Shown here piece by piece: positions 1 through 8,869 of a stretch of 8,869 bases of DNA. The stretch's first letter is position 1. Each line of letters starts with the position of its first letter. The notes under the pieces were generated by a model. It was not told where the DNA came from and searched no databases. It worked only from the letters and a program-made list of their open reading frames with translations. The position numbers and the translations under genes are program-made. Origin of the DNA: a virus (taxonomy: Duplodnaviria; Heunggongvirae; Uroviricota; Caudoviricetes); the IMG/VR virus record IMGVR_UViG_2740892258_000018, positions 1 through 8,869 of that record. One strand, 5' to 3'.

Positions 1-1338
1 ATGACGGGGGCAGATAGTGAAGGCGGAGCTGAGGTGTATTCAGCCGCAACCACGCGTGACCAGGCCAGAATCGTGTTTGAAGACGCCAAAAATATGGTCA
101 GAAAAGCCCGGTCGACACTCGGGCGGTTGTTTGATTTCAACAAGCTGGCGATTTACCAGGAGCAGAGCGCATCAAAATTTGAACCGCTTTCCTCGGATGC
201 AAACAACCTGGACGGTCTGAACATCCACTGCGCCATTATTGATGAGCTGCATGCACATAAAACCCGCGACGTGTGGGACGTTCTGGAAACGGCAACCGGT
301 GCCCGTCTGCAGTCCCTGTTATTTGGTATCACCACGGCTGGCTTTAACAAGGAAGGGATTTGTTACGAGCAGCGTGATTACGCCATCAAGGTATTGCGAG
401 GCTATAACAGCGACGTGGAGGGCGCTGTAAAAGACGACTCTTACTTTGCGATCATTTACACGCTCGATGAGGGAGATGATCCGTTTGATGAAACGGTCTG
501 GCAGAAAGCGAATCCTGGCCTGGGCATCTGTAAACGCTGGGATGATCTGCGTCGTCTGGCGAAAAAAGCGAAGGAGCAGGTCTCTGCGCGGGTGAATTTT
601 TTTACCAAACACATGAATGTGTGGGTCACTGCCGAATCTGCCTGGATGGATATGATTAAGTGGGAGAAGTGCGAATACATTGCTCCACAACATGAGCTGA
701 AAACATATCCCATGTGGGTCGGCGTCGACCTTGCTCATAAGATTGATATCTGTGCGGCGGCAAAACTCTGGCGAACCGATAACGGACATGTTCATGCTGA
801 TTTTAAATTCTGGCTTCCGGAAGGACGGCTGGAACGATGCTCGCGGCAGCAGGCAGAACTTTACCGGAAGTGGGCGGAGATGGATAAGCTCATCCTGACG
901 GATGGTGATGTTATCGATCATGCTCAGATAAAAAGTGACTTACTGGAATGGATTGGCGGTGAAAACCTCAGGGAACTGGGATTTGACCCGTGGAGCGCAA
1001 TGCAGTTCAGTCTGGCACTGGCTGAAGAAGGGATACCGCTGGTGGAGGTTCCGCAGACGGTCCGCAATCTGTCAGAGGCCATGAAGGAAACGGAATCACT
1101 GGTTTATGCCGGGCGTTTCCATCACAGCAATCATCCGGTCATGAACTGGATGATGTCTAACGTTACTGTAAAACCGGACAAAAACGACAACATCTTCCCG
1201 AATAAATCCACGCCGGAAGCCAAAATCGACGGCCCTGTTGCGCTTTTTACAGCCATGAGCCGCTTTCTGGTAAATGGCGGGGGCGTGAATGACTTTCTGT
1301 CCACGCTTGATCCTGATGAGGACCTGTTAATTCTGTGA
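1..1338 (+). CDS. Phage terminase large subunit (HK97/Terminase_1-like), 5'-partial: window starts inside the gene
   Basis: 445-aa ORF running from window edge to TGA at 1336-1338. Contains an ATPase Walker-B-like segment (HCAIIDELH) followed by a TTAG motif and a C-terminal nuclease-type region. Walker A is absent, so the N-terminus lies upstream of the window; the ATG at position 1 is probably coincidental. Family assigned by recognition of the translated sequence, no search run. Confidence 0.85.
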   Translation: MTGADSEGGAEVYSAATTRDQARIVFEDAKNMVRKARSTLGRLFDFNKLAIYQEQSASKFEPLSSDANNLDGLNIHCAIIDELHAHKTRDVWDVLETATGARLQSLLFGITTAGFNKEGICYEQRDYAIKVLRGYNSDVEGAVKDDSYFAIIYTLDEGDDPFDETVWQKANPGLGICKRWDDLRRLAKKAKEQVSARVNFFTKHMNVWVTAESAWMDMIKWEKCEYIAPQHELKTYPMWVGVDLAHKIDICAAAKLWRTDNGHVHADFKFWLPEGRLERCSRQQAELYRKWAEMDKLILTDGDVIDHAQIKSDLLEWIGGENLRELGFDPWSAMQFSLALAEEGIPLVEVPQTVRNLSEAMKETESLVYAGRFHHSNHPVMNWMMSNVTVKPDKNDNIFPNKSTPEAKIDGPVALFTAMSRFLVNGGGVNDFLSTLDPDEDLLIL

Positions 1339-1355
1339 AACAGCTTATTACTGAT

Positions 1356-1496
1356 ATGACCGGGCTGATCGGTTTCGGTCTGCTCACTGCTGGCGTTTAT
1401 CTGTATGCAGGTCTGCCAGCGTCTCTGATGCTGTCTGGCTGTTTGTTGCTGCTTTATGCACTGGTGGTGTCCATGAGGAGAAAACATGCTTCTTGA
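1356..1496 (+). CDS. Hypothetical small membrane protein (46 aa, two predicted TM helices) filling the terminase-portal gap
   Basis: ORF ATG 1356 to TGA 1494-1496, not in the supplied track (under 60 aa). Translation MTGLIGFGLLTAGVYLYAGLPASLMLSGCLLLLYALVVSMRRKHAS is strongly hydrophobic with a basic C-terminus. Its stop overlaps the portal start (1486). An in-frame GTG at 1335 overlapping the terminase stop would give 53 aa. No convincing Shine-Dalgarno, so coding status is uncertain. Confidence 0.3.
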   Translation: MTGLIGFGLLTAGVYLYAGLPASLMLSGCLLLLYALVVSMRRKHAS

Positions 1497-2712
1497 TGCT
1501 CTGTTTCGCAGTGAGCCTCTGGAAAATCCCTCGGTTCCGGTAACCGGAGAGGCCGCTGAGACGGATAATATTTTTGCCCGGGATGTGTATGTCAGTCCGG
1601 AAACGTCCATGAGGCTGGCTGCTGTCTATGCCTGTATTTATGTTATTTCATCCAGTGTGGCTCAGATGCCCCTGCATGTGATGCGAAAAACGAATGAGCA
1701 TGTTCAGCCGGCACGCGATCACCCGTTGTTCTGGCTCGTTCATGATGAACCGAATGCCTGGCAGACCAGCTATAAGTGGCGGGAACTGAAGCAGCGTCAT
1801 GTGCTGGGGTGGGGCAATGGTTATACGTGGGTGAAACGTAATCGTCGTGGCGAGGTTACCAGTCTTGAATGCTGTATGCCATGGGAAACCACGTTACTTA
1901 ACACTGGAGGGCGTCATACCTACGGTGTGTATAACGAAGAGGGTGCATTTGCGGTAAGTCCGGACGACATGATCCATATCAGGGCGCTGGGAAACAATCA
2001 GAAAATGGGACTGAGTCCGATCATGCAGCATGCTGAAACCATTGGTATGGGAATGAGTGGTCAGCAGTATACCAGTGCTTTTTTTAACGGTAATGCCCGT
2101 CCTGCCGGGATTATTTCTGTGAAAAATGAACTGAACGAACAGAGTTGGAGCAGGCTCAAGAATATGTGGCAGCGGGCGGTGACAGCGCTTCGCAGTCAGG
2201 AAAATAAAACCATGCTGCTGCCTGCGCAACTGGATTACCGTGCCCTGACAGTTTCTCCGGTGGATGCTCAGATCATTGATATGACCAAGCTGAACCGGTC
2301 GATGATTGCCGGAATTTTTAATGTCCCGGCGCACATGATTAATGACCTGGAAAAAGCCACATTTTCGAATATTACACAGCAGGCGATTCAGTTTGTTCGC
2401 TACACGATGATGCCCTGGGTTGCGAACTGGGAGCAGGAGCTTAACCGTCGCCTGTTTACCCGCACAGAACGGGCTGCCGGGTATTACGTTCGTTTCAACC
2501 TTACAGGATTGCTCCGCGGGACTCCACAGGAGCGTGCGCAGTTTTATCACTTTGCCATTACAGATGGCTGGATGAGCCGGAATGAAGCGAGGGCATTTGA
2601 GGACATGAACCCGGTTGATGGTCTGGATGAAATGCTGGTCAGCGTAAATGCAGCAAATCCGTTGAATGATTTTAAAGATACGAAAGGCAAAGAGGAAAAG
2701 AACGATGAATGA
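1486..2712 (+). CDS. Phage portal protein, HK97 family
   Basis: 408-aa ORF with strong RBS (AGGAGA 1475-1480, 5-nt spacer). Size and sequence character fit HK97-type portals, including a C-terminal acidic tail. Sits directly after the terminase, the canonical order. Confidence 0.85.
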   Translation: MLLDALFRSEPLENPSVPVTGEAAETDNIFARDVYVSPETSMRLAAVYACIYVISSSVAQMPLHVMRKTNEHVQPARDHPLFWLVHDEPNAWQTSYKWRELKQRHVLGWGNGYTWVKRNRRGEVTSLECCMPWETTLLNTGGRHTYGVYNEEGAFAVSPDDMIHIRALGNNQKMGLSPIMQHAETIGMGMSGQQYTSAFFNGNARPAGIISVKNELNEQSWSRLKNMWQRAVTALRSQENKTMLLPAQLDYRALTVSPVDAQIIDMTKLNRSMIAGIFNVPAHMINDLEKATFSNITQQAIQFVRYTMMPWVANWEQELNRRLFTRTERAAGYYVRFNLTGLLRGTPQERAQFYHFAITDGWMSRNEARAFEDMNPVDGLDEMLVSVNAANPLNDFKDTKGKEEKNDE

Positions 2713-3304
2713 CCGTGAAACGCGCTGTTACAGCGGGGAAGTGCGGGCAGAACAATATGATAATGCCCCGACTCATATTTTGGGGTATGGCTCGGTATTT
2801 AACAGTCGTTCAGAACCTCTGTGGGGATTTCGTGAAATCATCAAGCCGGGGGCTTTTGACGACGTGCTGAATGATGATGTACGTGGATTGTTTAATCATG
2901 ATCCTAATTTCATTCTCGGACGAAGTTCTGCCGGCACGTTGTCATTATCAGTGGATGAACGTGGTTTGCGTTACGACATTGTTGCACCGGATACGCCGAC
3001 GATTTGTGACCTGGTGCTGTCACCAATGTTGCGTGGTGACATTAATCAGTCCTCGTTCGCGTTTCGCGTCGCTCGTGATGGAGAGAGCTGGTATGAAGAC
3101 GACGAGGGGATTGTTATCCGGGAAATCACGCGCATTTCTCGTCTGTATGACGTCAGCCCGGTGACATATCCGGCCTATCAGGACGCAGACTCTGGTGTCC
3201 GCTCAATGAAAGCCTGGCAGGAAGCGCGGGCGAGTGGTGCGCTGAAGAAAGCTGTTAACGAACGAATGGCGCGTGAGCGTCTTTTGACCCTTCTTAATGC
3301 ATAA
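2705..3304 (+). CDS. Prohead maturation protease, HK97 family (peptidase S78-like)
   Basis: Track ORF starts at 2666, but the ATG at 2705 has a GAGGAA SD 8 nt upstream and overlaps the portal stop (ATGAATGA), so 2705 is the preferred start. About 199 aa; contains the conserved His-containing LFNHD motif and a downstream Ser-rich segment (GDINQSSFAFR) typical of HK97 gp4-type proteases. Position between portal and capsid is canonical. Confidence 0.8.
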   Translation: MNDRETRCYSGEVRAEQYDNAPTHILGYGSVFNSRSEPLWGFREIIKPGAFDDVLNDDVRGLFNHDPNFILGRSSAGTLSLSVDERGLRYDIVAPDTPTICDLVLSPMLRGDINQSSFAFRVARDGESWYEDDEGIVIREITRISRLYDVSPVTYPAYQDADSGVRSMKAWQEARASGALKKAVNERMARERLLTLLNA

Positions 3305-3318
3305 GGATACTACTGACG

Positions 3319-4536
3319 ATGAAACTTCATGAGATGAAGCAAAAACGAAACACCATTGCAAAGGATATGCGTGCACTGCATGAAAAAATTGGTGATAACG
3401 CATGGACTGATGAGCAACGGGCAGAGTGGAACAGGGCGAAAGCTGAGCTGGATGCGCTGGATGAGCAAATCGCCCGTGAAGAAGAGTTGCGCCGTCAGGA
3501 TCAGGCATATGTGGATGAGTCCGGGCCGGAAGAGCGCCAGAATAATGAGGCGGAGAACGGGAAAAAGGCGGTGGAAGAGAAGCGCGCTGCGGCATTTAAC
3601 CGTTTTCTGCGTGCCGGATTTGCAGAACTGAATGCTGAAGAGCGTAATCTGATGCGTGAACTGCGGGCTCAGAGTGTAACAACGGATTCTCAGGGCGGAT
3701 ATACGGTGCCCACGCAGATGCGTAACAAAATCATTGACACCATGAAGGCTTATGGCGGGATTGCCAGTGTTGCGCAACTTCTGACCACATCAACCGGGCA
3801 GGATATCACCTGGTCAACGTCTGATGGCACGACTGAAGAGGGCGAACTGCTGGCGGAAAATACAGCCGCAACGGAACAGGATGTGACGTTCGGGACCGCT
3901 ATTCTGGGGGCTAAAAAGCTGTCATCAAAAATAATTCGTGTGTCCAATGAGCTGCTCCAGGACAGTGGGGTGGATATTGAATCTTATCTGGCAAACCGTA
4001 TTGCCCAGCGTATTGGTCGTGGAGAGGCGAAATATCTGGTTCAGGGGACCGGAACGGGATCACCGTTACAGCCAAAAGGGCTGGCAGCGTCGGTGACGGG
4101 AATCATCCAGACTGCAGCCTCTGCCGCTTTCACCTGGAAAGAAATGAATGCCCTGAAACATGCCATTGATCCGGCATATCGTGGTGGGCCGAAATACCGC
4201 TGGGCATTCAATGATGCCACATTGCAGACTATTGAAGAGATGGAGGATGGACAGAAACGCCCGTTATGGCTGCCGGATATTGCAGGCGGTACGCCGGCTA
4301 CTGTGCTGGGGATCCCTTATGTTATTGATCAGGCTATTGACGGGATTGGTACCGGAAAAAAATTCATTTTCCTGGGGGATTTCAACCGCTTTATCATTCG
4401 CCGCGTTACTTATATGGAACTGAAACGTCTGGTTGAGCGTTATGCTGAGTTTGATCAGGTGGCATTTCTGGCTTTCCATCGTTTTGACTGTGTGCTGGAA
4501 GATGTGGCAGCCATCAAGGCGCTCACTGGCAAATAA
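3319..4536 (+). CDS. Major capsid protein, HK97 family, with N-terminal delta (scaffolding) domain
   Basis: 405-aa ORF with AAGGAT SD about 10 nt upstream. The N-terminal ~110 aa are charged and coiled-coil-like (EQRAEWNRAKAELDALDEQIAREEELRRQ...), as in HK97-type capsids that carry their scaffold in cis. The rest reads as an HK97-fold capsid body. Followed by an intrinsic terminator. Confidence 0.85.
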   Translation: MKLHEMKQKRNTIAKDMRALHEKIGDNAWTDEQRAEWNRAKAELDALDEQIAREEELRRQDQAYVDESGPEERQNNEAENGKKAVEEKRAAAFNRFLRAGFAELNAEERNLMRELRAQSVTTDSQGGYTVPTQMRNKIIDTMKAYGGIASVAQLLTTSTGQDITWSTSDGTTEEGELLAENTAATEQDVTFGTAILGAKKLSSKIIRVSNELLQDSGVDIESYLANRIAQRIGRGEAKYLVQGTGTGSPLQPKGLAASVTGIIQTAASAAFTWKEMNALKHAIDPAYRGGPKYRWAFNDATLQTIEEMEDGQKRPLWLPDIAGGTPATVLGIPYVIDQAIDGIGTGKKFIFLGDFNRFIIRRVTYMELKRLVERYAEFDQVAFLAFHRFDCVLEDVAAIKALTGK

Positions 4537-4556
4537 CCACTCGTTGTTCAGTTACA

Positions 4557-4580
4557 GACCGCGCCGACGCGGTTTTTTTA
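4557..4580 (+). terminator. Rho-independent terminator/attenuator downstream of the major capsid gene
   Basis: Sequence GACCGCGCCGACGCGGTTTTTTTA: stem ACCGCG (4558-4563) pairs with CGCGGT (4568-4573) around loop CCGA, followed by a run of 7 T (4573-4579). Lies 21 nt after the capsid stop. Confidence 0.6.
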
Positions 4581-4602
4581 TGCCCGCACAGTGTTGCGGG
4601 CA
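4581..4602 (+). promoter_or_regulatory. Perfect 8-bp inverted repeat (TGCCCGCA-N6-TGCGGGCA) overlapping the SD of the connector gene
   Basis: TGCCCGCA at 4581-4588 and its exact reverse complement TGCGGGCA at 4595-4602, spacer CAGTGT. The 3' arm overlaps the GGAG SD (4603-4606) of the gene starting at 4613. No T-tract follows, so it is more likely an operator or translational-control hairpin than a terminator. Confidence 0.35.
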
Positions 4603-4612
4603 GGAGTTTCTG

Positions 4613-4930
4613 ATGGCAGCAATAGTGGAAAAACTCAGGGCGCAGTGCCGTATTGATACAGATGATGCAACTGATGATGAGTTACTGATGCTGTATTTCC
4701 GGGCTGCCTGCCGCAAGGCAGAAAATTTTATCAACCGTAAGCTTTATGAGGAGACGGTGCCGGAAGGTGATCCTGAAGGGGTGCTTATAGCTGATGATGT
4801 TTTGCTGGCGCTCATGTTGCTGGTCGGGCACTGGTACGAAAACCGGGAAAATTCCTCAGATGTCAGCAAGGCACCAGTCCCGTTTGGTTTTTCTTCTCTG
4901 CTGGAGCCTTATCGTTTTATTCCTTTGTAG
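4613..4930 (+). CDS. Head-tail connector protein (gp6-like, Phage_connect_1 family)
   Basis: Track ORF 4433-4930 overlaps the capsid gene and spans the terminator, so the ATG at 4613 (GGAG SD 4603-4606, 6-nt spacer) is the likely start. About 105 aa; the N-terminal pattern LRAQCRIDTDDATDDELLMLYFRAA is characteristic of gp6-like connectors. Confidence 0.75.
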   Translation: MAAIVEKLRAQCRIDTDDATDDELLMLYFRAACRKAENFINRKLYEETVPEGDPEGVLIADDVLLALMLLVGHWYENRENSSDVSKAPVPFGFSSLLEPYRFIPL

Positions 4931-4938
4931 GAGGAGAC

Positions 4939-5277
4939 ATGCAGGCGGGCAGATTACGTGATCGCGTAATTATTCTGAATGTCACCACCGCCCGCTCTCC
5001 GTCAGGGCATCCGGTGGAGACGGTGACGGAGGGAGCTACCGTATGGGCAGAAGTTAAGGGTATCAGCGGGAGGGAGATAATCTCAGGCGGAGCAGAAACC
5101 GCTCAGGCTACGGTCAGAGTCTGGATGAGATTCCGGCGCGATGTGACAGCGACTTCACGTCTGAAAGTGCTGACCGGTGCATTTAAAGGGGCCATTCTGG
5201 GTATAGAAGGTCCACCAATACCGGATGCACGCGCTACCCGGCTTGAAATACTCTGCAGCCTGAAGGGGAATGTGTGA
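4939..5277 (+). CDS. Head closure / head-tail adaptor protein (SPP1 gp16-like, Phage_H_T_join family)
   Basis: 112-aa ORF with strong SD AGGAGGAG (4929-4936). Pattern RDRVIILNVTTARSPSGHPVETVTEGATVWAEVKGISGRE...RVWMRFRRDV fits head-closure proteins. Canonical position after the connector. Confidence 0.75.
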   Translation: MQAGRLRDRVIILNVTTARSPSGHPVETVTEGATVWAEVKGISGREIISGGAETAQATVRVWMRFRRDVTATSRLKVLTGAFKGAILGIEGPPIPDARATRLEILCSLKGNV

Positions 5278-5723
5278 TGGATTTCAGTCTTGATTTTTCC
5301 GGCCTGGCGGATATTGCACGGGATTTGGAGACGCTCAGCAGGGCAGAAAACAATAAGGTTCTGCGCGATGCCACCCGTGCCGGTGCTGAAGTTATGCGGG
5401 ATGCAGTTGTTGAACGTGCGCCGGAGCGAACCGGGAAACTGAAGAAAAATGTGGTTGTTCTCACTCAGCGTTCAAAGCGTCGGGGGGAAATTATCTCGGG
5501 TGTCCACATTCGCGGACGGAACCTGCGAACCGGAAACAGTGATAACAGCATGAAAGCCAGCGATCCCCGAAATGCATTTTACTGGCGCTTTGTGGAGCTG
5601 GGAACGATAAACATGCCCGCGCATCCATTCATTCGCCCGGCTTTCGATACGACAGAGGAACTGGCAGCACGGATTGCTATACAGCGAATGAATCAGGCTA
5701 TTGATGAGGTCTTAAGTAAATGA
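5277..5723 (+). CDS. HK97 gp10-family phage protein (neck/tail-attachment component)
   Basis: ATG at 5277 overlaps the upstream TGA (TGATG), indicating translational coupling. About 148 aa, with the ERAPERTGKLKKN segment matching the P..TG.L pattern of the gp10 family. Confidence 0.65.
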   Translation: MDFSLDFSGLADIARDLETLSRAENNKVLRDATRAGAEVMRDAVVERAPERTGKLKKNVVVLTQRSKRRGEIISGVHIRGRNLRTGNSDNSMKASDPRNAFYWRFVELGTINMPAHPFIRPAFDTTEELAARIAIQRMNQAIDEVLSK

Positions 5724-6055
5724 GAGAGGCCACACTGTATTCCCTGTTGTCTCAGCTGGCCGGAGGACAGGTTTATCCTTATGTGGTCCCACTGACGGAG
5801 GGAAAGCCTGCGGTATCTCCGCCGTGGCTGGTGTTTTCTGTGGTGTCTGACACGGCATCTGATGTGCTTGATGGGCAGGCTGAATCCAGAATTACCGTGC
5901 AGATCGATGTCTGGGCGACAGTACCTGATGACGCAGATAATATTCGTGAGCAGGCGCTTGATGCGGTAAGAAAACTGGCTGCCGCTACGGTCCGATGCGT
6001 GAAAACCCGGGCTTGCAGCGACCGTTCCGGTCGCGCCGCCCCTGTCGCGCCGTGA
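5720..6055 (+). CDS. DUF3168-like protein (gp11-like tail completion/neck protein); C-terminus possibly altered
   Basis: ATGA overlap with the upstream gene at 5720-5723. N-terminal two thirds (LYSLLSQLAGGQVYPYVVPLTEG...WLVFSVVSD...ITVQIDVWA) fit DUF3168 proteins. The last ~20 aa (RCVKTRACSDRSGRAAPVAP) are Cys/Arg/Pro-rich and read like translated GC-rich non-coding DNA. Confidence 0.5.
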   Translation: MREATLYSLLSQLAGGQVYPYVVPLTEGKPAVSPPWLVFSVVSDTASDVLDGQAESRITVQIDVWATVPDDADNIREQALDAVRKLAAATVRCVKTRACSDRSGRAAPVAP

Positions 6056-6439
6056 CCTGCGCTCCCTGCACACCTGACGGTGTGTGAGGAAACTGCGCCT
6101 GATGGCGCAGCAGTCCTCCCTCCTGCCGCCCCCCCTGCGGCCTGTTTCCCCGCTGTGGACTTTCCGGGGGGCAGACGTAACCCCCTCCCGTTCCATCTGT
6201 CCAGGGTGAGATGCACCGGCCACAAAATTTTTAGCCATGAACCCGGCAAAAAATTTTGCGTCCGCCCCCGGACAGCTGCCCCGTGAGGCGGTAAACGGGC
6301 CCCCATCGGAAAGGTCCACTGCGGGGAGAAACCCCTGTGAAGTGGACGGCAGGAGGAGCTTTCGCTCCTCTGAAGGGGCACATGAACGTCCCGTCGCCGG
6401 TATCCGGTTTATCTCACATCTTTCAGTCAGGAGGTTCTT
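6056..6439 (+). promoter_or_regulatory. GC-rich structured non-coding region upstream of ssb; candidate single-stranded-DNA promoter (Frpo/ssi-like)
   Basis: 384 bp with no credible ORF. Nested imperfect inverted repeats: CACACC/GGTGTG (6070-6084); CTGCGCC/GGCGCAG (6093-6110); long-range arms CCCGCTGTGGACTTTCCGGGGGG (6148-6170) versus CCCCCATCGGAAAGGTCCACTGCGGGG (6300-6326); inner AT-rich pair CACAAAATTTTT (6219-6230) versus AAAAAATTTTG (6248-6258). Ends at the ssb SD AGGAGG (6429-6434). Plasmid leading regions are known to carry ~300-nt hairpin-forming ssDNA promoters upstream of ssb, psiB and ardA. Confidence 0.45.
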
Positions 6440-6967
6440 ATGAGTGCACGTGGTATCAACAAGGTCATCCTCGTCGGGCGTCTGGGCAATGATCCGGAAG
6501 TCCGTTACATCCCCAACGGGGGCGCAGTGGCAAACCTGCAGGTGGCCACATCAGAAAGCTGGCGTGACAAACAGACGGGGGAGATGCGGGAGCAGACGGA
6601 ATGGCACCGCGTGGTGCTGTTCGGCAAGCTCGCGGAAGTGGCAGGTGAATATCTGCGCAAGGGTGCGCAGGTCTACATCGAAGGTCAGCTTCGCACCCGT
6701 AGCTGGGAAGATAACGGTATCACCCGTTACGTCACTGAAATTCTTGTTAAGACCACGGGCACCGTGCAGATGCTGGGACGTGCACCACAGCAGAACGCTC
6801 AGGCGCAACCGAAGCCTCAGCAGAATGGGCAGCCACAGAGTGCTGACGCGACGAAAAAAGGTGGCGCGAAAACGAAAGGCCGTGGACGTAAGGCCGCGCA
6901 GCCAGAGCCTCAGCCGCAACCGCCGGAGGGGGAGGATTACGGGTTTTCAGACGACATCCCGTTCTGA
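6440..6967 (+). CDS. ssb: Single-stranded DNA-binding protein, conjugative-plasmid type
   Basis: 175-aa ORF with AGGAGG SD 5 nt upstream. N-terminal OB-fold ([99 protein letters not shown]), a Gln/Pro-rich linker and the acidic tip DDIPF. The linker is [21 protein letters not shown] rather than the Gly/Gln-rich linker of chromosomal E. coli SSB, so it resembles F/IncI plasmid SSB more closely. Confidence 0.95.
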
Positions 6968-6987
6968 TCGGGCTGACTGTGACAACC

Positions 6988-7006
6988 GCCCCGCCCTGTG
7001 CGGGGC
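6988..7006 (+). other. GC-rich hairpin in the ssb - ParB-like intergenic region
   Basis: GCCCCGC (6988-6994), loop CCTGT, GCGGGGC (7000-7006). No T-tract follows, so it is more likely an mRNA-stabilising or processing hairpin than a terminator. Confidence 0.3.
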
Positions 7007-7024
7007 ATCACCGGAGATATGAGG

Positions 7025-8869
7025 ATGAGCGAATATTTCAGAATACTTCAGGGACTCTGCCCTGCTGGCGCAGACGGAGGAAGTGAGCGTGCCGCTGGCC
7101 TCGCTGATTAAATCACCGCTGAATGTGCGCACGGTGCCGTATTCTGCGGAGTCCGTCAGCGAACTGGCGGAGTCCATTAAGGGCGTCGGACTGCTGCAGA
7201 ATCTGGTCGTGCATACCCTGCCTGGTGACCGTTACGCTGTCGCCGCAGGCGGTCGCCGACTGGCAGCACTCAACATGCTGGCAGAGCGCAACATCCTTCC
7301 GGCTGACTGGCCTGTACGCGTGAAGGTCATTCCGCAGGAGCTGGCGACTGCCGCATCGATGACCGAGAACGGTCAGCGTCGGGATATGCACCCTGCCGAA
7401 CAGATTGCCGGATTCCGCGCAATGGCGCAGGAAGGCAAAACGCCTGCACAAATCGGTGATTTGCTGGGCTATTCACCCCGCCACGTTCAGCGAATGCTTG
7501 TCAGGCGCTGGCGCTGGAGAACGACACCGCGCGTCAGGTGCAGGTGTTTGAAGCCGCCTGCCAGTCGGGATGGGGCGGTAAACCGGAAGTACAGACCATT
7601 CGTCGTCTGGTGACCGAAAGTGAAGTGGCGGTGGCGGGGAACAGTAAATTCCGCTTCGTGGGGGCTGATGCCTTCTCGCCAGACGAACTGCGCACCGATT
7701 TGTTCAGCGATGACGGGGACGGTTATGTCGACCGCGTGGCGCTCGATGCCGCCCTGCTGGAAAAACTCCAGGCTGTCGCAGAGTTCCTTCGGGAAGCCGA
7801 AGGCTGGGAATGGTGCGCCGGACGCATGGAGCCTGTCGGTGAGTGCCGTGAAGATGCCCGGGCATACCGCAACCTGCCGGAGCCGGAAGCGGTGCTGACG
7901 GAGGCGGAAGACGAACGTCTGAACGAACTGATGGCTCGTTACGACTCGCTGGAAAACCAGTGTGAGGAATCTGACCTGCTGGCAGCAGAAATGAAGCTGA
8001 TTGACTGCATGGCGAAGGTCAGGGCGTGGACGCCGGAGATGCGTGCCGGAAGTGGCGTGGTGGTGTCCTGGCGTTACGGTAATGTGTGTATCCAGCGTGG
8101 TGTGCAGTTGCGCAGTGAGGATGATGTGGCTGACGACGCTGACCGCACGGAACAGGGGCTGGAGAGCGCGTCAGTGGAGGAAATTAGTCTGCCGTTGCTG
8201 ACTAAATTGACCTCAGAGCGCACGCTGGCAGTCCAGGCAGCACTGATGCAGCAACCGGACAAATCCCTGGCACTGCTGGCATGGACGCTCTGCCTGAATG
8301 TGTTTGACAGCAAAGCGCATAGTAGTCCCGCCAGAATTCGCCTGGAATGTGAGCATTATGCGCTGACCAGCGATGCACCGTCAGGGAAGGAAGGTGCCGC
8401 ATTCATGGCGCTGATGGCAGAACACTCTCGTTTTGCTGCCCTGCTGCCGGAAGGATGGGAACGGGATATGACGACGTTCCTGTCACTTAGCCAGGAGGTG
8501 CTGTTATCCCTGCTCAGTTTCTGTACCGCGTGCAGTCTTAACGGTGTCCAGACCCGCGAGTGTGGTCACACGTCACGCAGTCCGCTGGACTCGCTGGAAA
8601 CCGCCATCGGCTTTCACATGCGCGACTGGTGGCAGCCGACAAAAGCAAACTTCTTCGGACACCTGAAAAAGCCGCAGATTATCGCAGCCCTGAATGAGGC
8701 CGGACTGTCCGGTGCCGCACGGGACGCGGAGAAAATGAAGAAAGGCGATGCGGCTGAACATGCAGAGTTCCATATGAAAGACAACCGCTGGGTGCCTGGC
8801 TGGATGTGTGCACCACGTCCACAGACGGATGCCACTGAACACACCGCTAACCTGGCTGATGCCGCCTGA
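7025..8869 (+). pseudogene. ParB-N-domain (ParB/sulfiredoxin-like) protein gene of plasmid leading-region type, interrupted by two frame changes
   Basis: ATG 7025 (GGAGA SD 7012-7016) opens MSEYFR... but stops at TAA 7109-7111. A second frame is open from 7029 to 7613 and carries the ParB-N-like core (GVGLLQNLVVH...AAGGRRLAALNML...RDMHPAEQIAGFRAMAQEGKTPAQIGDLLGYSPRHVQRML). From about 7502 the first frame resumes (QALALENDTARQVQVFEAACQSGWGG...) and runs ~455 codons to TGA 8867-8869. The three segments together make one ~600-aa protein. Confidence 0.7.
7031..7050 (+). repeat. 10-bp tandem duplication (GAATATTTCA / GAATACTTCA) in the first codons of the ParB-like gene
   Basis: Direct adjacent copies at 7031-7040 and 7041-7050, one mismatch. 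Removing one copy fuses ATG 7025 in frame to the ParB-N domain, giving MSEYFRDSALLAQTEEVSVPLASLIK... Confidence 0.7.

Follow-up and report, generated by a model that had tools for sequence, protein, structure and literature searches.

In conjugative plasmids, genes of the leading region are known to be expressed early from single-stranded DNA, and in the F plasmid the element Frpo2 lies upstream of the genes ssbF-yfjA-yfjB-psiB-psiA (PMC9849209, PMC11541004). For IncI and IncF plasmids the Frpo-ssb-yfjA-parB-psiB-psiA module is already well described, as are the way it faces oriT and how it is expressed early from the transferred strand (PMC9849209, PMC11541004). Here we compare with these systems a stretch of 8,869 nucleotides, the whole of which is referred to as the window, from the virus record IMGVR_UViG_2740892258_000018. 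Judged by its sequence, the right part of the window (5977-8869) is an ordinary, already well-known piece of the leading region of an IncI-type conjugative plasmid.

Layout of the window and identity of the plasmid block

The window is delimited by gene calls, since it starts on a called ATG and ends exactly on the stop codon of a parB-like gene. The features are as follows; the head-block genes were taken from the annotation of the matching prophage and a Pfam gene list, and the breaks in the parB-like gene were defined against the intact 652-amino-acid plasmid protein.

1..5979, plus strand: prophage head-morphogenesis block, outside the plasmid module
1-1338: terminase large subunit, C-terminal 445 of 585 amino acids
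1486-2712: portal
2705-3304: HK97 prohead protease
3319-4536: major capsid
4613-4930: head-tail connector
4939-5277: head closure
5277-5723: gp10-like
5720-5979: tail-completion gp17, 5' part
5977..5979: phage-plasmid junction, blunt, with 3 bp (GGC) common to both sources
6042..6373, minus strand: predicted Frpo3-type single-stranded DNA promoter (ssi/Frpo element), upstream of ssb, by homology to ColIb-P9 Frpo3
6147..6327, minus strand: principal long hairpin of the Frpo element, with 69 pairs predicted and its apical loop at 6236-6245
6440..6967, plus strand: ssb, intact, plasmid-type single-stranded DNA-binding protein of 175 amino acids
7025..7056, plus strand: remnant of a DUF905 (yfjA-like) gene, first 32 nt only (intact gene at 13049-13282 of the plasmid sequence L001)
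7056..7057: breakpoint 1, 338 bp of plasmid (L001 13081-13418) missing, 1 bp microhomology
7056..7498, plus strand: parB-like gene, codons 27 to about 174 (ParB_N and the start of the HTH)
7498..7499: breakpoint 2, 67 bp (L001 13862-13928) missing, no microhomology
7499..8869, plus strand: parB-like gene, from codon 197 through codon 652 to the stop; no Pfam family covers the C-terminal part

Over 5979 bp the head block matches chromosomal DNA of IHE3034 and of numerous related E. coli at 100% identity, and it is 98-99% identical to Escherichia phages. At the junction (5977-5979) the GC content climbs from about 0.52 to about 0.61. A 46-mer spanning it had no match in the metagenome, viral and species-representative genome contig collections, which is a sign of uniqueness and by itself no proof of an artefact, and the protein of the ORF that crosses it (5720-6055) was found in a single record of the whole assembly collection searched. 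This join is most likely an artificial contig join.

Every retained base of 5977-8869 is 100% identical to the IncI-gamma/K-type plasmids p866 and pN62c. Identity is 100% for p866 and for 25 or more of the plasmids listed, and the total of matching plasmid records is 5000 or higher. Counts in complete E. coli genomes put the module at 12,266 places on plasmids versus 264 on chromosomes, and a comparison with 50,697 phage records gave no near match. These data bear out the assumption of the first-pass annotation that the module is plasmid-derived. The gene order in native plasmids is ssb-DUF905-parB-psiB-psiA-orf198-ardA, followed further on by oriT-nikA-nikB (MobC/MobA/relaxase).

The minus strand of 6042-6373 aligned with ColIb-P9 Frpo3 over 331 of 331 nt at 98.5% identity, as compared with 86.7% for Frpo2 and 80.4% for Frpo1 (reference sequences from Supplementary file 4 of PMC11541004). 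As in the described systems, the element thus precedes ssb and lies on the strand opposite to the coding one, and p866 has three Frpo copies, each immediately upstream of a gene start. When folded as single-stranded DNA, the minus strand gave -116 kcal/mol (z = -8.0, with none of 100 shuffles folding as well), and the plus-strand fold gave z = -7.0. Among the three p866 copies, ten hairpin pairs are altered on both sides, that is, in a compensatory manner. By analogy with the published F and ColIb elements, 6042-6373 would be expected to have promoter activity.

The ssb product matched Pfam SSB (2.4e-37), passed the NCBIfam model NF010292 (385.8 bits, cut-off 265) and failed NF006533 (237.5 bits, cut-off 260). 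Its DNA is the same as that of ssb in p866 and pN62c, where the product is annotated as WP_001276120.1. The protein is 87% identical to an F-type plasmid SSB, with which it has a K/R-rich linker in common, versus 61% to the chromosomal E. coli SSB. The chromosomal protein has a like N-terminal domain (OB-fold) and a like DDDIPF-type tip at the C-terminus, whereas its linker is Gly/Gln-rich and that of the window SSB is K/R- and P/Q-rich. The plasmid type that had been assigned to the linker at first sight is therefore correct.

A ParB-like gene had been reported to follow ssb. The gene is present, but it is not one ORF, and in native plasmids the DUF905/yfjA gene lies between the two. Breakpoint 1 leaves parB without codons 1-26, including the start codon, and deletes the intergenic region and the greater part of DUF905; the missing DUF905 stretch is probably a collapsed assembly gap. 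The loss of 67 bp after codon 174 or so shifts the frame inside the HTH_ParB domain, and the gene appears in the window as two ORFs in different frames, 7083-7613 and 7538-8869, in place of an intact ORF of about 652 codons. The former begins at an internal GTG; an exact look-up of its 176-amino-acid product returned no record, because the gene call takes a different start. Each of the 55 plasmid matches listed is split where it crosses the 338-bp stretch (in one set of 30, 28 need two or three pieces), and the two window deletions (338 and 67 bp) were found in none of the plasmid matches listed. The intact plasmid protein matched ParB_N (5.9e-08), HTH_ParB (2e-08) and TIGR00180 (67.4 bits, cut-off 58.45), and so has both domains of a ParABS-type ParB, of which the HTH is disrupted in the window copy. 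No cognate parA adjoins the gene, whose neighbours are ssb/DUF905 and psiB; the ParA gene of the plasmid is on the opposite strand, at a distance of about 9 kb. Because the same operon has no parA gene, we state the likeness to ParB for the fold alone. The first-pass annotation was silent on the breaks in parB, on the Frpo element at 6042-6373 and on the prophage DNA left of 5977.

Downstream genes and the transferred strand

The sequence beyond the window was read in the source contig CVOH01000144.1 (GCA_001245225.1; 28.9 kb of contig). We found that psiB starts 55 bp past the end of the window (the parB stop), on the same strand and intact (Pfam PsiB 9.3e-57; NF010255 266 bits). On the same strand psiA comes next, in two pieces, residues 1-37 and a C-terminal part, with 437 bp missing. 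The expectation that psiB and psiA would lie just beyond the right edge was thus confirmed, with psiA interrupted.

The plasmid block ends 128 bp short of ardA, and no ardA, oriT, hok/sok or relaxase genes were found in the 28.9 kb of the contig, nor any of the further Frpo copies, of which ColIb-P9 has two. A Rfam scan of a 20-kb stretch of the contig gave no family at gathering score, and so no Sok/hok-type RNA was detected; the hok/sok-like loci that had been suggested for this side did not turn up. In the native plasmids ardA lies 2.3 kb beyond parB, and at 8.3 kb downstream there follows an R64-type oriT nick, which is on the minus strand. The forecast of ardA and oriT downstream therefore holds in the native plasmids and fails in the source contig. 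The oriT core GACATTCCCACATCCTGTC was found once, on the minus strand (L001 23591-23609), and the nick position is presumably that of the MOBP/R64 nick consensus, with a spacing of 8 bp from repeat A. The minus strand had also been predicted to be the transferred one, and both the strand of the nick motif and the published Frpo3, which corresponds to the minus strand of the window, agree with this.

These features suggest how the block would work in its native setting. The source plasmid would be a conjugative plasmid of the IncI complex (IncI-gamma/K-type, MOBP/MPF_I), the leading region of which would be the first DNA to enter the recipient. The minus strand, nicked at the R64-type oriT about 8.3 kb downstream, would enter with its 5' end first, and on this single strand the Frpo3 element (6042-6373) may then form a long hairpin resembling a double-stranded promoter. 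From it, host RNA polymerase would transcribe ssb-yfjA(DUF905)-parB-like-psiB-psiA ahead of complementary-strand synthesis. According to the literature, from which both the promoter activity and the protein functions are drawn, SSB would coat the incoming strand and PsiB would block RecA-dependent SOS induction.

Assembly of the source contig and rival explanations

CVOH01000144.1 consists of at least 12 pieces from the chromosome, a prophage and two plasmid types, without any N characters, and the pieces are 87-100% (most of them 100%) identical to separate replicons. All junctions examined in the contig are blunt with 0-3 bp microhomology, and piece ends show exact overlaps of 47, 56 and 57 bp in tandem, permuted or inverted order. 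The plasmid block is just 4.6 kb long and lies between the prophage head genes and pieces of ColV plasmid. The right flank proved to be etsCBA, a ColV-plasmid operon, at 100% identity, together with a bor/iss-like piece; a chromosomal origin of this flank (Bor, OEP, MacB-like) was ruled out by the etsCBA match. No complete E. coli genome holds at least 80% of the window. In complete genomes with an identical prophage and flank the parts are on separate replicons: the prophage and the hprS flank are chromosomal in IHE3034 and EC9682, the leading region is on the 101-kb plasmid pN62c, and cvaA/ets are on ColV plasmids.

Since piece ends have exact 47-57-bp overlaps and the parts are on separate replicons in complete genomes, we infer from the sequence that the context and the 'deletions' are most likely artefacts. 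We consider it very probable that the block is a fragment of an IncI-gamma/K-type leading region and that its phage context and internal deletions arose in assembly. The draft contig would then consist of short de Bruijn-graph contigs strung together end to end with no gap characters between them, their sources being the chromosome, the prophage, an IncI/K-type plasmid and a ColV IncF plasmid. Of the eight plasmid breakpoints, three fall no more than 3 bp from an edge of an exact run common with an F-type leading region, and such edges would be graph branch points; the right edge of breakpoint 2 is 2 bp from the start of such a run. The runs were defined with an arbitrary ColV plasmid, pMTY1887, rather than the strain's own, and those shared with pMTY1887 explained neither the psiA gap nor the left edge of the 67-bp gap. 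The hypothesis of repeats collapsed between IncI/K-type and F-type shared stretches, which fits these three of eight breakpoints only, was consequently demoted to a supporting role. Against an assembly artefact it counts that the 47-bp overlap implies a k inconsistent with the 56/57-bp overlaps and that leading-region blocks do occur at the 264 chromosomal places in complete genomes, so that integration is possible.

The same chromosomal places, the continuous deposition of the contig without N characters and the intact state of ssb, Frpo3 and psiB would also suit a real mosaic, in which a 4.6-kb Frpo3-ssb-parB'-psiB-psiA' fragment was captured by illegitimate recombination and is decaying by deletions, the partners being a defective prophage and integrated ColV-plasmid DNA in the isolate. 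We regard this as unlikely, as the block shows no substitution in 4.6 kb versus three blunt deletions (338, 67 and 437 bp), the exact 56/57-bp overlaps join piece ends in permuted order, and the contig shows comparable damage elsewhere: the housekeeping gene msrP has a 137-bp 'deletion', and hchA-region DNA contains a tandem overlap of 47 bp. Moreover, the arrangement was seen in no other assembly, complete genome or plasmid examined, and breakpoints match assembly breakpoints of unrelated data sets; the terminase breakpoint is the exact, adapter-capped contig start in an unrelated assembly, with two other contig starts within 45 bp. Slightly less likely still is the fuller version in which the junctions are real and, inside a mosaic of integrated ColV-plasmid DNA, the head module of a defective lambdoid prophage gained Frpo3-ssb-parB'-psiB from an IncI/K-type plasmid resident in the same isolate. 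If so, anti-SOS genes and a single-stranded DNA promoter would have a phage-linked chromosomal location, where they could act on other single-stranded DNA, whether incoming or packaged.

The flanking cvaA and ets pieces, which are ColV-plasmid DNA at 100% identity, might instead suggest that the block is the F-type leading region of the strain's own ColV IncF plasmid, natively linked to ets/iss/cvaA, and ColV plasmids do carry an ssb-DUF905-parB-psiB-psiA region of their own. In the one ColV plasmid examined, however, this region is only 89-94% identical, versus 100% for the IncI-gamma/K-type, and it is differently arranged, with tens of kb between it and cvaA and ets, which makes a ColV origin very improbable. 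We give next to no credence to the idea that ssb and the ParB-like gene form a replication/partition module of a prophage or phage-plasmid, unrelated to conjugation. The two genes do stand directly downstream of phage head genes on the same strand, and ParB_N/HTH domains also occur in partition proteins of phages and phage-plasmids; but all 31 matching phage records (50,697 searched) are confined to window positions 1-5979, an intact prophage has tail genes after gp17, no parA adjoins, and the sequence of the block is that of conjugative plasmids, preceded by Frpo3 and followed by psiB/psiA. A phage origin of ssb and parB was rejected, as none of these phage records matches beyond 5979.

Comparison with known leading regions

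Returning to the reading of an IncI-gamma/K-type fragment in an assembled context, we note that the prediction made from gene context, with psiB and psiA next and the minus strand transferred, proved sound. Biologically, the window adds nothing new with 5977-8869, and since its context is artefactual on this reading, nothing on transfer can be inferred for this locus itself. What it offers is a caution: in this public draft both the seeming fusion of phage and plasmid and the seeming pseudogenisation of parB and psiA are most likely a matter of contig joining, and the window should not be counted as evidence for plasmid-to-phage gene capture or for decay of leading-region genes.

The closest relatives are p866 (NZ_CP022673.1) and pN62c (NZ_JBUBMV010000004.1), in which the 100% identity runs on through psiB, psiA and orf198. 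They have 338, 67 and 437 extra bp at three points and, in contrast to the contig, continue into ardA, more Frpo copies, the R64-type oriT and nikA/nikB-like relaxase genes. ColIb-P9 (IncI1; AJ238399) is arranged as Frpo3-ssb, psiB-psiA, ardA and oriT in that succession. The likeness extends to the Frpo element (98.5%), its strand relative to ssb and the gene set of ssb, ParB-like, psiB and psiA. Unlike ColIb-P9, the window copy is without the DUF905 gene and the start of parB, its parB is frameshifted, and the contig has neither ardA nor oriT. In the F plasmid (Frpo2-ssbF-yfjA-yfjB-psiB-psiA; PMC9849209) the gene order is alike and the genes point toward oriT, and it has in common a single-stranded DNA promoter and the early, transient expression of ssb, DUF905-type and ParB-like genes and SOS inhibitors. 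The F-type leading region, in the version examined, is 89-94% identical in DNA and 87% in SSB. F has a MOBF relaxase and an F-type oriT, whereas the plasmids related to the window have the R64 type.

A composite window: phage head module and plasmid ssb-parB block

The ORF listing and base composition divided the window into two distinct parts, with GC content climbing to ~61% from position ~5980 onward. The features of the window are as follows:

1 to ~5980: phage head module, ~51% GC, with genes for a terminase large subunit lacking its N-terminus, portal, HK97-type protease, major capsid, connectors and the start of tail-completion gp17
6042-6373, minus strand: full-length Frpo3 element
6147-6327, minus strand: predicted single-stranded DNA (ssDNA) hairpin of 69 pairs
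6440-6967: ssb
7083-7613 and 7538-8869: a pair of ParB-related ORFs that overlap and differ in frame

In BLAST searches of annotated collections, positions 1-5979 matched prophages in the chromosomes of IHE3034 and many related E. coli at 100% identity, and several Escherichia phages at 98-99%. Positions 5977-8869 matched conjugative plasmids of ~83-125 kb at 100% identity, among them Shigella sonnei p866 (typed as IncI-gamma/K1, MOBP and MPF_I). No phage record matched past position 5979, and among complete E. coli genomes none was found to contain at least 80% of the window. The right end of the window is exactly the parB stop codon. Independent assemblies of related prophages varied at the boundary of the terminase small and large subunits (stretches L011, ~1037, and L014, 1449-3204); one prophage lacked positions 7171-7972 of reference stretch L002, and in another the large subunit was split into 144- and 445-aa ORFs. 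This boundary is a hot spot of mosaicism or frameshifting in these prophages.

The ssb gene is intact and of plasmid type. Its product scored 385.8 bits against NCBIfam NF010292 (cut-off 265), the sole curated cut-off that it passed, and fell below that of NF006533 (237.5 vs. 260). It shares 87% identity and a K/R-rich linker with the SSB of an F-type plasmid; the chromosomal E. coli SSB is 61% identical and has a Gly/Gln-rich linker.

The ParB-like gene, in contrast to that of p866, is not intact. At position 7056, 338 bp of p866 (reference stretch L001, 13081-13418) are absent; lost with them are the DUF905 (yfjA-like) gene beyond its first 32 nt, the DNA between the two genes and the first 26 parB codons. 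At 7498/7499, a further 67 bp (L001 13862-13928) are absent, shifting the frame within the HTH_ParB domain. All 55 plasmid matches listed, including 30 spread through a ranked list of over 5000 plasmid records, cross this stretch in split pieces, and thus none of the plasmids listed carries the 338- and 67-bp deletions. The protein has ParB_N and HTH_ParB domains, and no parA lies next to its gene; it resembles ParB in fold and is at most a candidate partition protein. In an independent assembly (Logan, of SRR18681712; L019 325-2282), a 1-bp indel divides the same gene into ORFs of 233 and 419 aa; this indel is a true frameshift variant or else a homopolymer error.

The leading region beyond the window

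The first-pass annotation had predicted psiB, psiA, ardA, hok/sok-like loci and an oriT to the right of position 8869, with the minus strand transferred. An exact look-up of the ORF spanning the phage-plasmid junction (5720-6055) led to contig CVOH01000144.1 (82.7 kb; assembly GCA_001245225.1), in which the window occupies positions 54187-63055. An intact psiB (144 aa; Pfam PsiB, 9.3e-57) starts 55 bp past the parB stop. It is followed by psiA, which lacks 437 bp (L001 15896-16332), and, as in the plasmids, by a 198-aa ORF. Plasmid homology ends at L001 17431, 128 bp short of ardA. Within the 28.9 kb examined, neither ardA nor an oriT of R64 or F type turned up, nikA and traM were likewise absent, and no Rfam family (Sok, for example) was detected. 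Of the predicted items, psiB and psiA alone were found in this part of the contig.

For the native plasmids, the prediction of psiB and psiA next, anti-restriction genes and oriT beyond, and minus-strand transfer was borne out by gene order and oriT strand. Both p866 and pN62c have the order ssb-DUF905-parB-psiB-psiA-orf198-ardA, followed by two more Frpo copies and MobC, oriT, MobA (nikA-like) and relaxase. The oriT core, an inverted repeat followed by ACATCCTG|T, has a single occurrence, which lies on the minus strand and 8.3 kb downstream from parB; the nick consensus used, with 8 bp between it and repeat A, is that of the R64/MOBP literature. The annotation of the complete ColV plasmid pMTY1887_IncF (L009 1-655 and 4020-4225) gives psiA as frameshifted, and likewise an additional ssb fragment that precedes ssb; leading-region genes in finished plasmids do therefore undergo some decay.

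The first-pass annotation had overlooked the Frpo element at 6042-6373. Compared with the reference sequences (Supplementary file 4 of PMC11541004), this minus-strand element matched ColIb-P9 Frpo3 over 331/331 nt at 98.5% identity, Frpo2 at 86.7% and Frpo1 at 80.4%. Folded as ssDNA, its minus strand gave -116 kcal/mol (z = -8.0), and its plus strand gave z = -7.0. p866 carries three Frpo copies, each shortly upstream of a gene start, in which 10 predicted pairs keep pairing with both sides changed. A second repeat family, distinct from Frpo (~354 bp, 94.6% identity; L001 10250-10602 and 17199-17551), lies directly upstream of both p866 anti-restriction genes (a 426-bp gene and ardA), with a partial copy in the source contig (20-kb stretch L003, 14613-14845). 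It could represent an additional element of regulatory or single-strand type.

Probable assembly origin of the patchwork

Mapping to references resolved 20 kb of the source contig into at least 12 pieces, including:

chromosomal zinT-msrQP-hiuH-hprRS-hchA-porin, 100% identical to IHE3034
prophage-like piece, ~300 bp
L003 3592-4277: first piece of the ColV exporter gene cvaA, from its middle, 686 bp
prophage head block, 5983 bp
IncI/K-type leading region, in four pieces
L003 14844-15076: second cvaA piece, which precedes the first in the real gene
bor-like piece
etsCBA operon of ColV plasmids, collinear for >7 kb

The two fragments of cvaA (colicin V exporter, HlyD family) thus flank the phage and plasmid DNA, and their order is not that of the real gene. 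The second has three mismatches to the ColV reference and might, on this sequence divergence, come from a paralogue, e.g., a chromosomal microcin exporter.

The junctions examined were blunt, with microhomology of 0-3 bp. Piece ends shared exact overlaps of 47 bp in tandem (L003 1827-1873 = 1874-1920), 56 bp in permuted order between the cvaA pieces (3592-3647 = 15021-15076) and 57 bp inverted (3294-3350 = reverse complement of 15651-15707), which look like k-mer overlaps of assembly-graph contigs abutted unmerged, from a de Bruijn graph with k near 57. The housekeeping gene msrP shows a 137-bp "deletion" of the same blunt kind as the parB and psiA gaps (source contig, L010 3391; chromosomal reference L005 21870-22006), with flanks 100% identical to IHE3034. 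The 4.6-kb plasmid block differs from p866 by three blunt deletions and zero substitutions. Of its 8 breakpoints, 3 are no more than 3 bp from an edge of an exact match to the F-type leading region of a ColV plasmid; with both plasmids present, the assembly graph would branch at such edges. In other assemblies found by look-up, the leading region appears as ~1.7-kb contigs whose starts are 39-93 bp away from the 67-bp gap.

The terminase breakpoint (L002 7997; L003 4278, window position -3) coincides to the base with the point where an unrelated metagenome contig starts after an adapter, and two more independent contigs begin within 45 bp of it. That contig, ENA k111_24024 (L015 1-16), opens with TGTGTATAAGAGACAG, the Nextera/Tn5 mosaic-end adapter, fused to the phage terminase gene; its start is adapter contamination in a public assembly, and the coincidence may reflect a Tn5 hot spot or a breakpoint that recurs.

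Genuine insertions of leading regions into chromosomes seem to occur: a search of complete E. coli genomes with positions 5980-8869 returned 264 chromosomal vs. 12,266 plasmid places. The phage-plasmid junction sequence was absent from metagenome, viral and genome contig collections, the junction-spanning ORF is on record once, and complete genomes with the identical prophage and hprS flank carry the components on separate replicons. Taken together with the blunt junctions, end overlaps, msrP gap and breakpoint coincidences, the junction and replicon results point to an assembly origin. From the assembled sequence, we consider it very probable that the phage-plasmid adjacency is a contig misjoin and the three "deletions" are collapsed scaffold gaps. 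The draft assembly is the best explanation for the unusual features: the phage neighbor, the broken parB and psiA, and the absence of ardA and oriT.

Proposed function and comparison with known systems

During conjugation, the relaxase would nick the minus strand at oriT, and the leading region would be the first DNA to enter the recipient, in single-stranded form. Frpo3 would then fold into a promoter-like hairpin from which host RNA polymerase may transcribe ssb, the DUF905 gene, the ParB-like gene, psiB and psiA ahead of complementary-strand synthesis, and SSB and PsiB would protect this strand as it arrives and hold the SOS response in check. What we observed of this scheme is sequence identity, gene order, fold, strand and the oriT motif; for promoter activity and protein functions we rely on published work (PMC9849209; PMC11541004). 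The F plasmid has the order ssbF-yfjA-yfjB-psiB-psiA with Frpo2 upstream (PMC9849209; PMC11541004). The block thus belongs to a well-described and already known module, that of IncI/IncF leading regions, and shows no departure from known systems.
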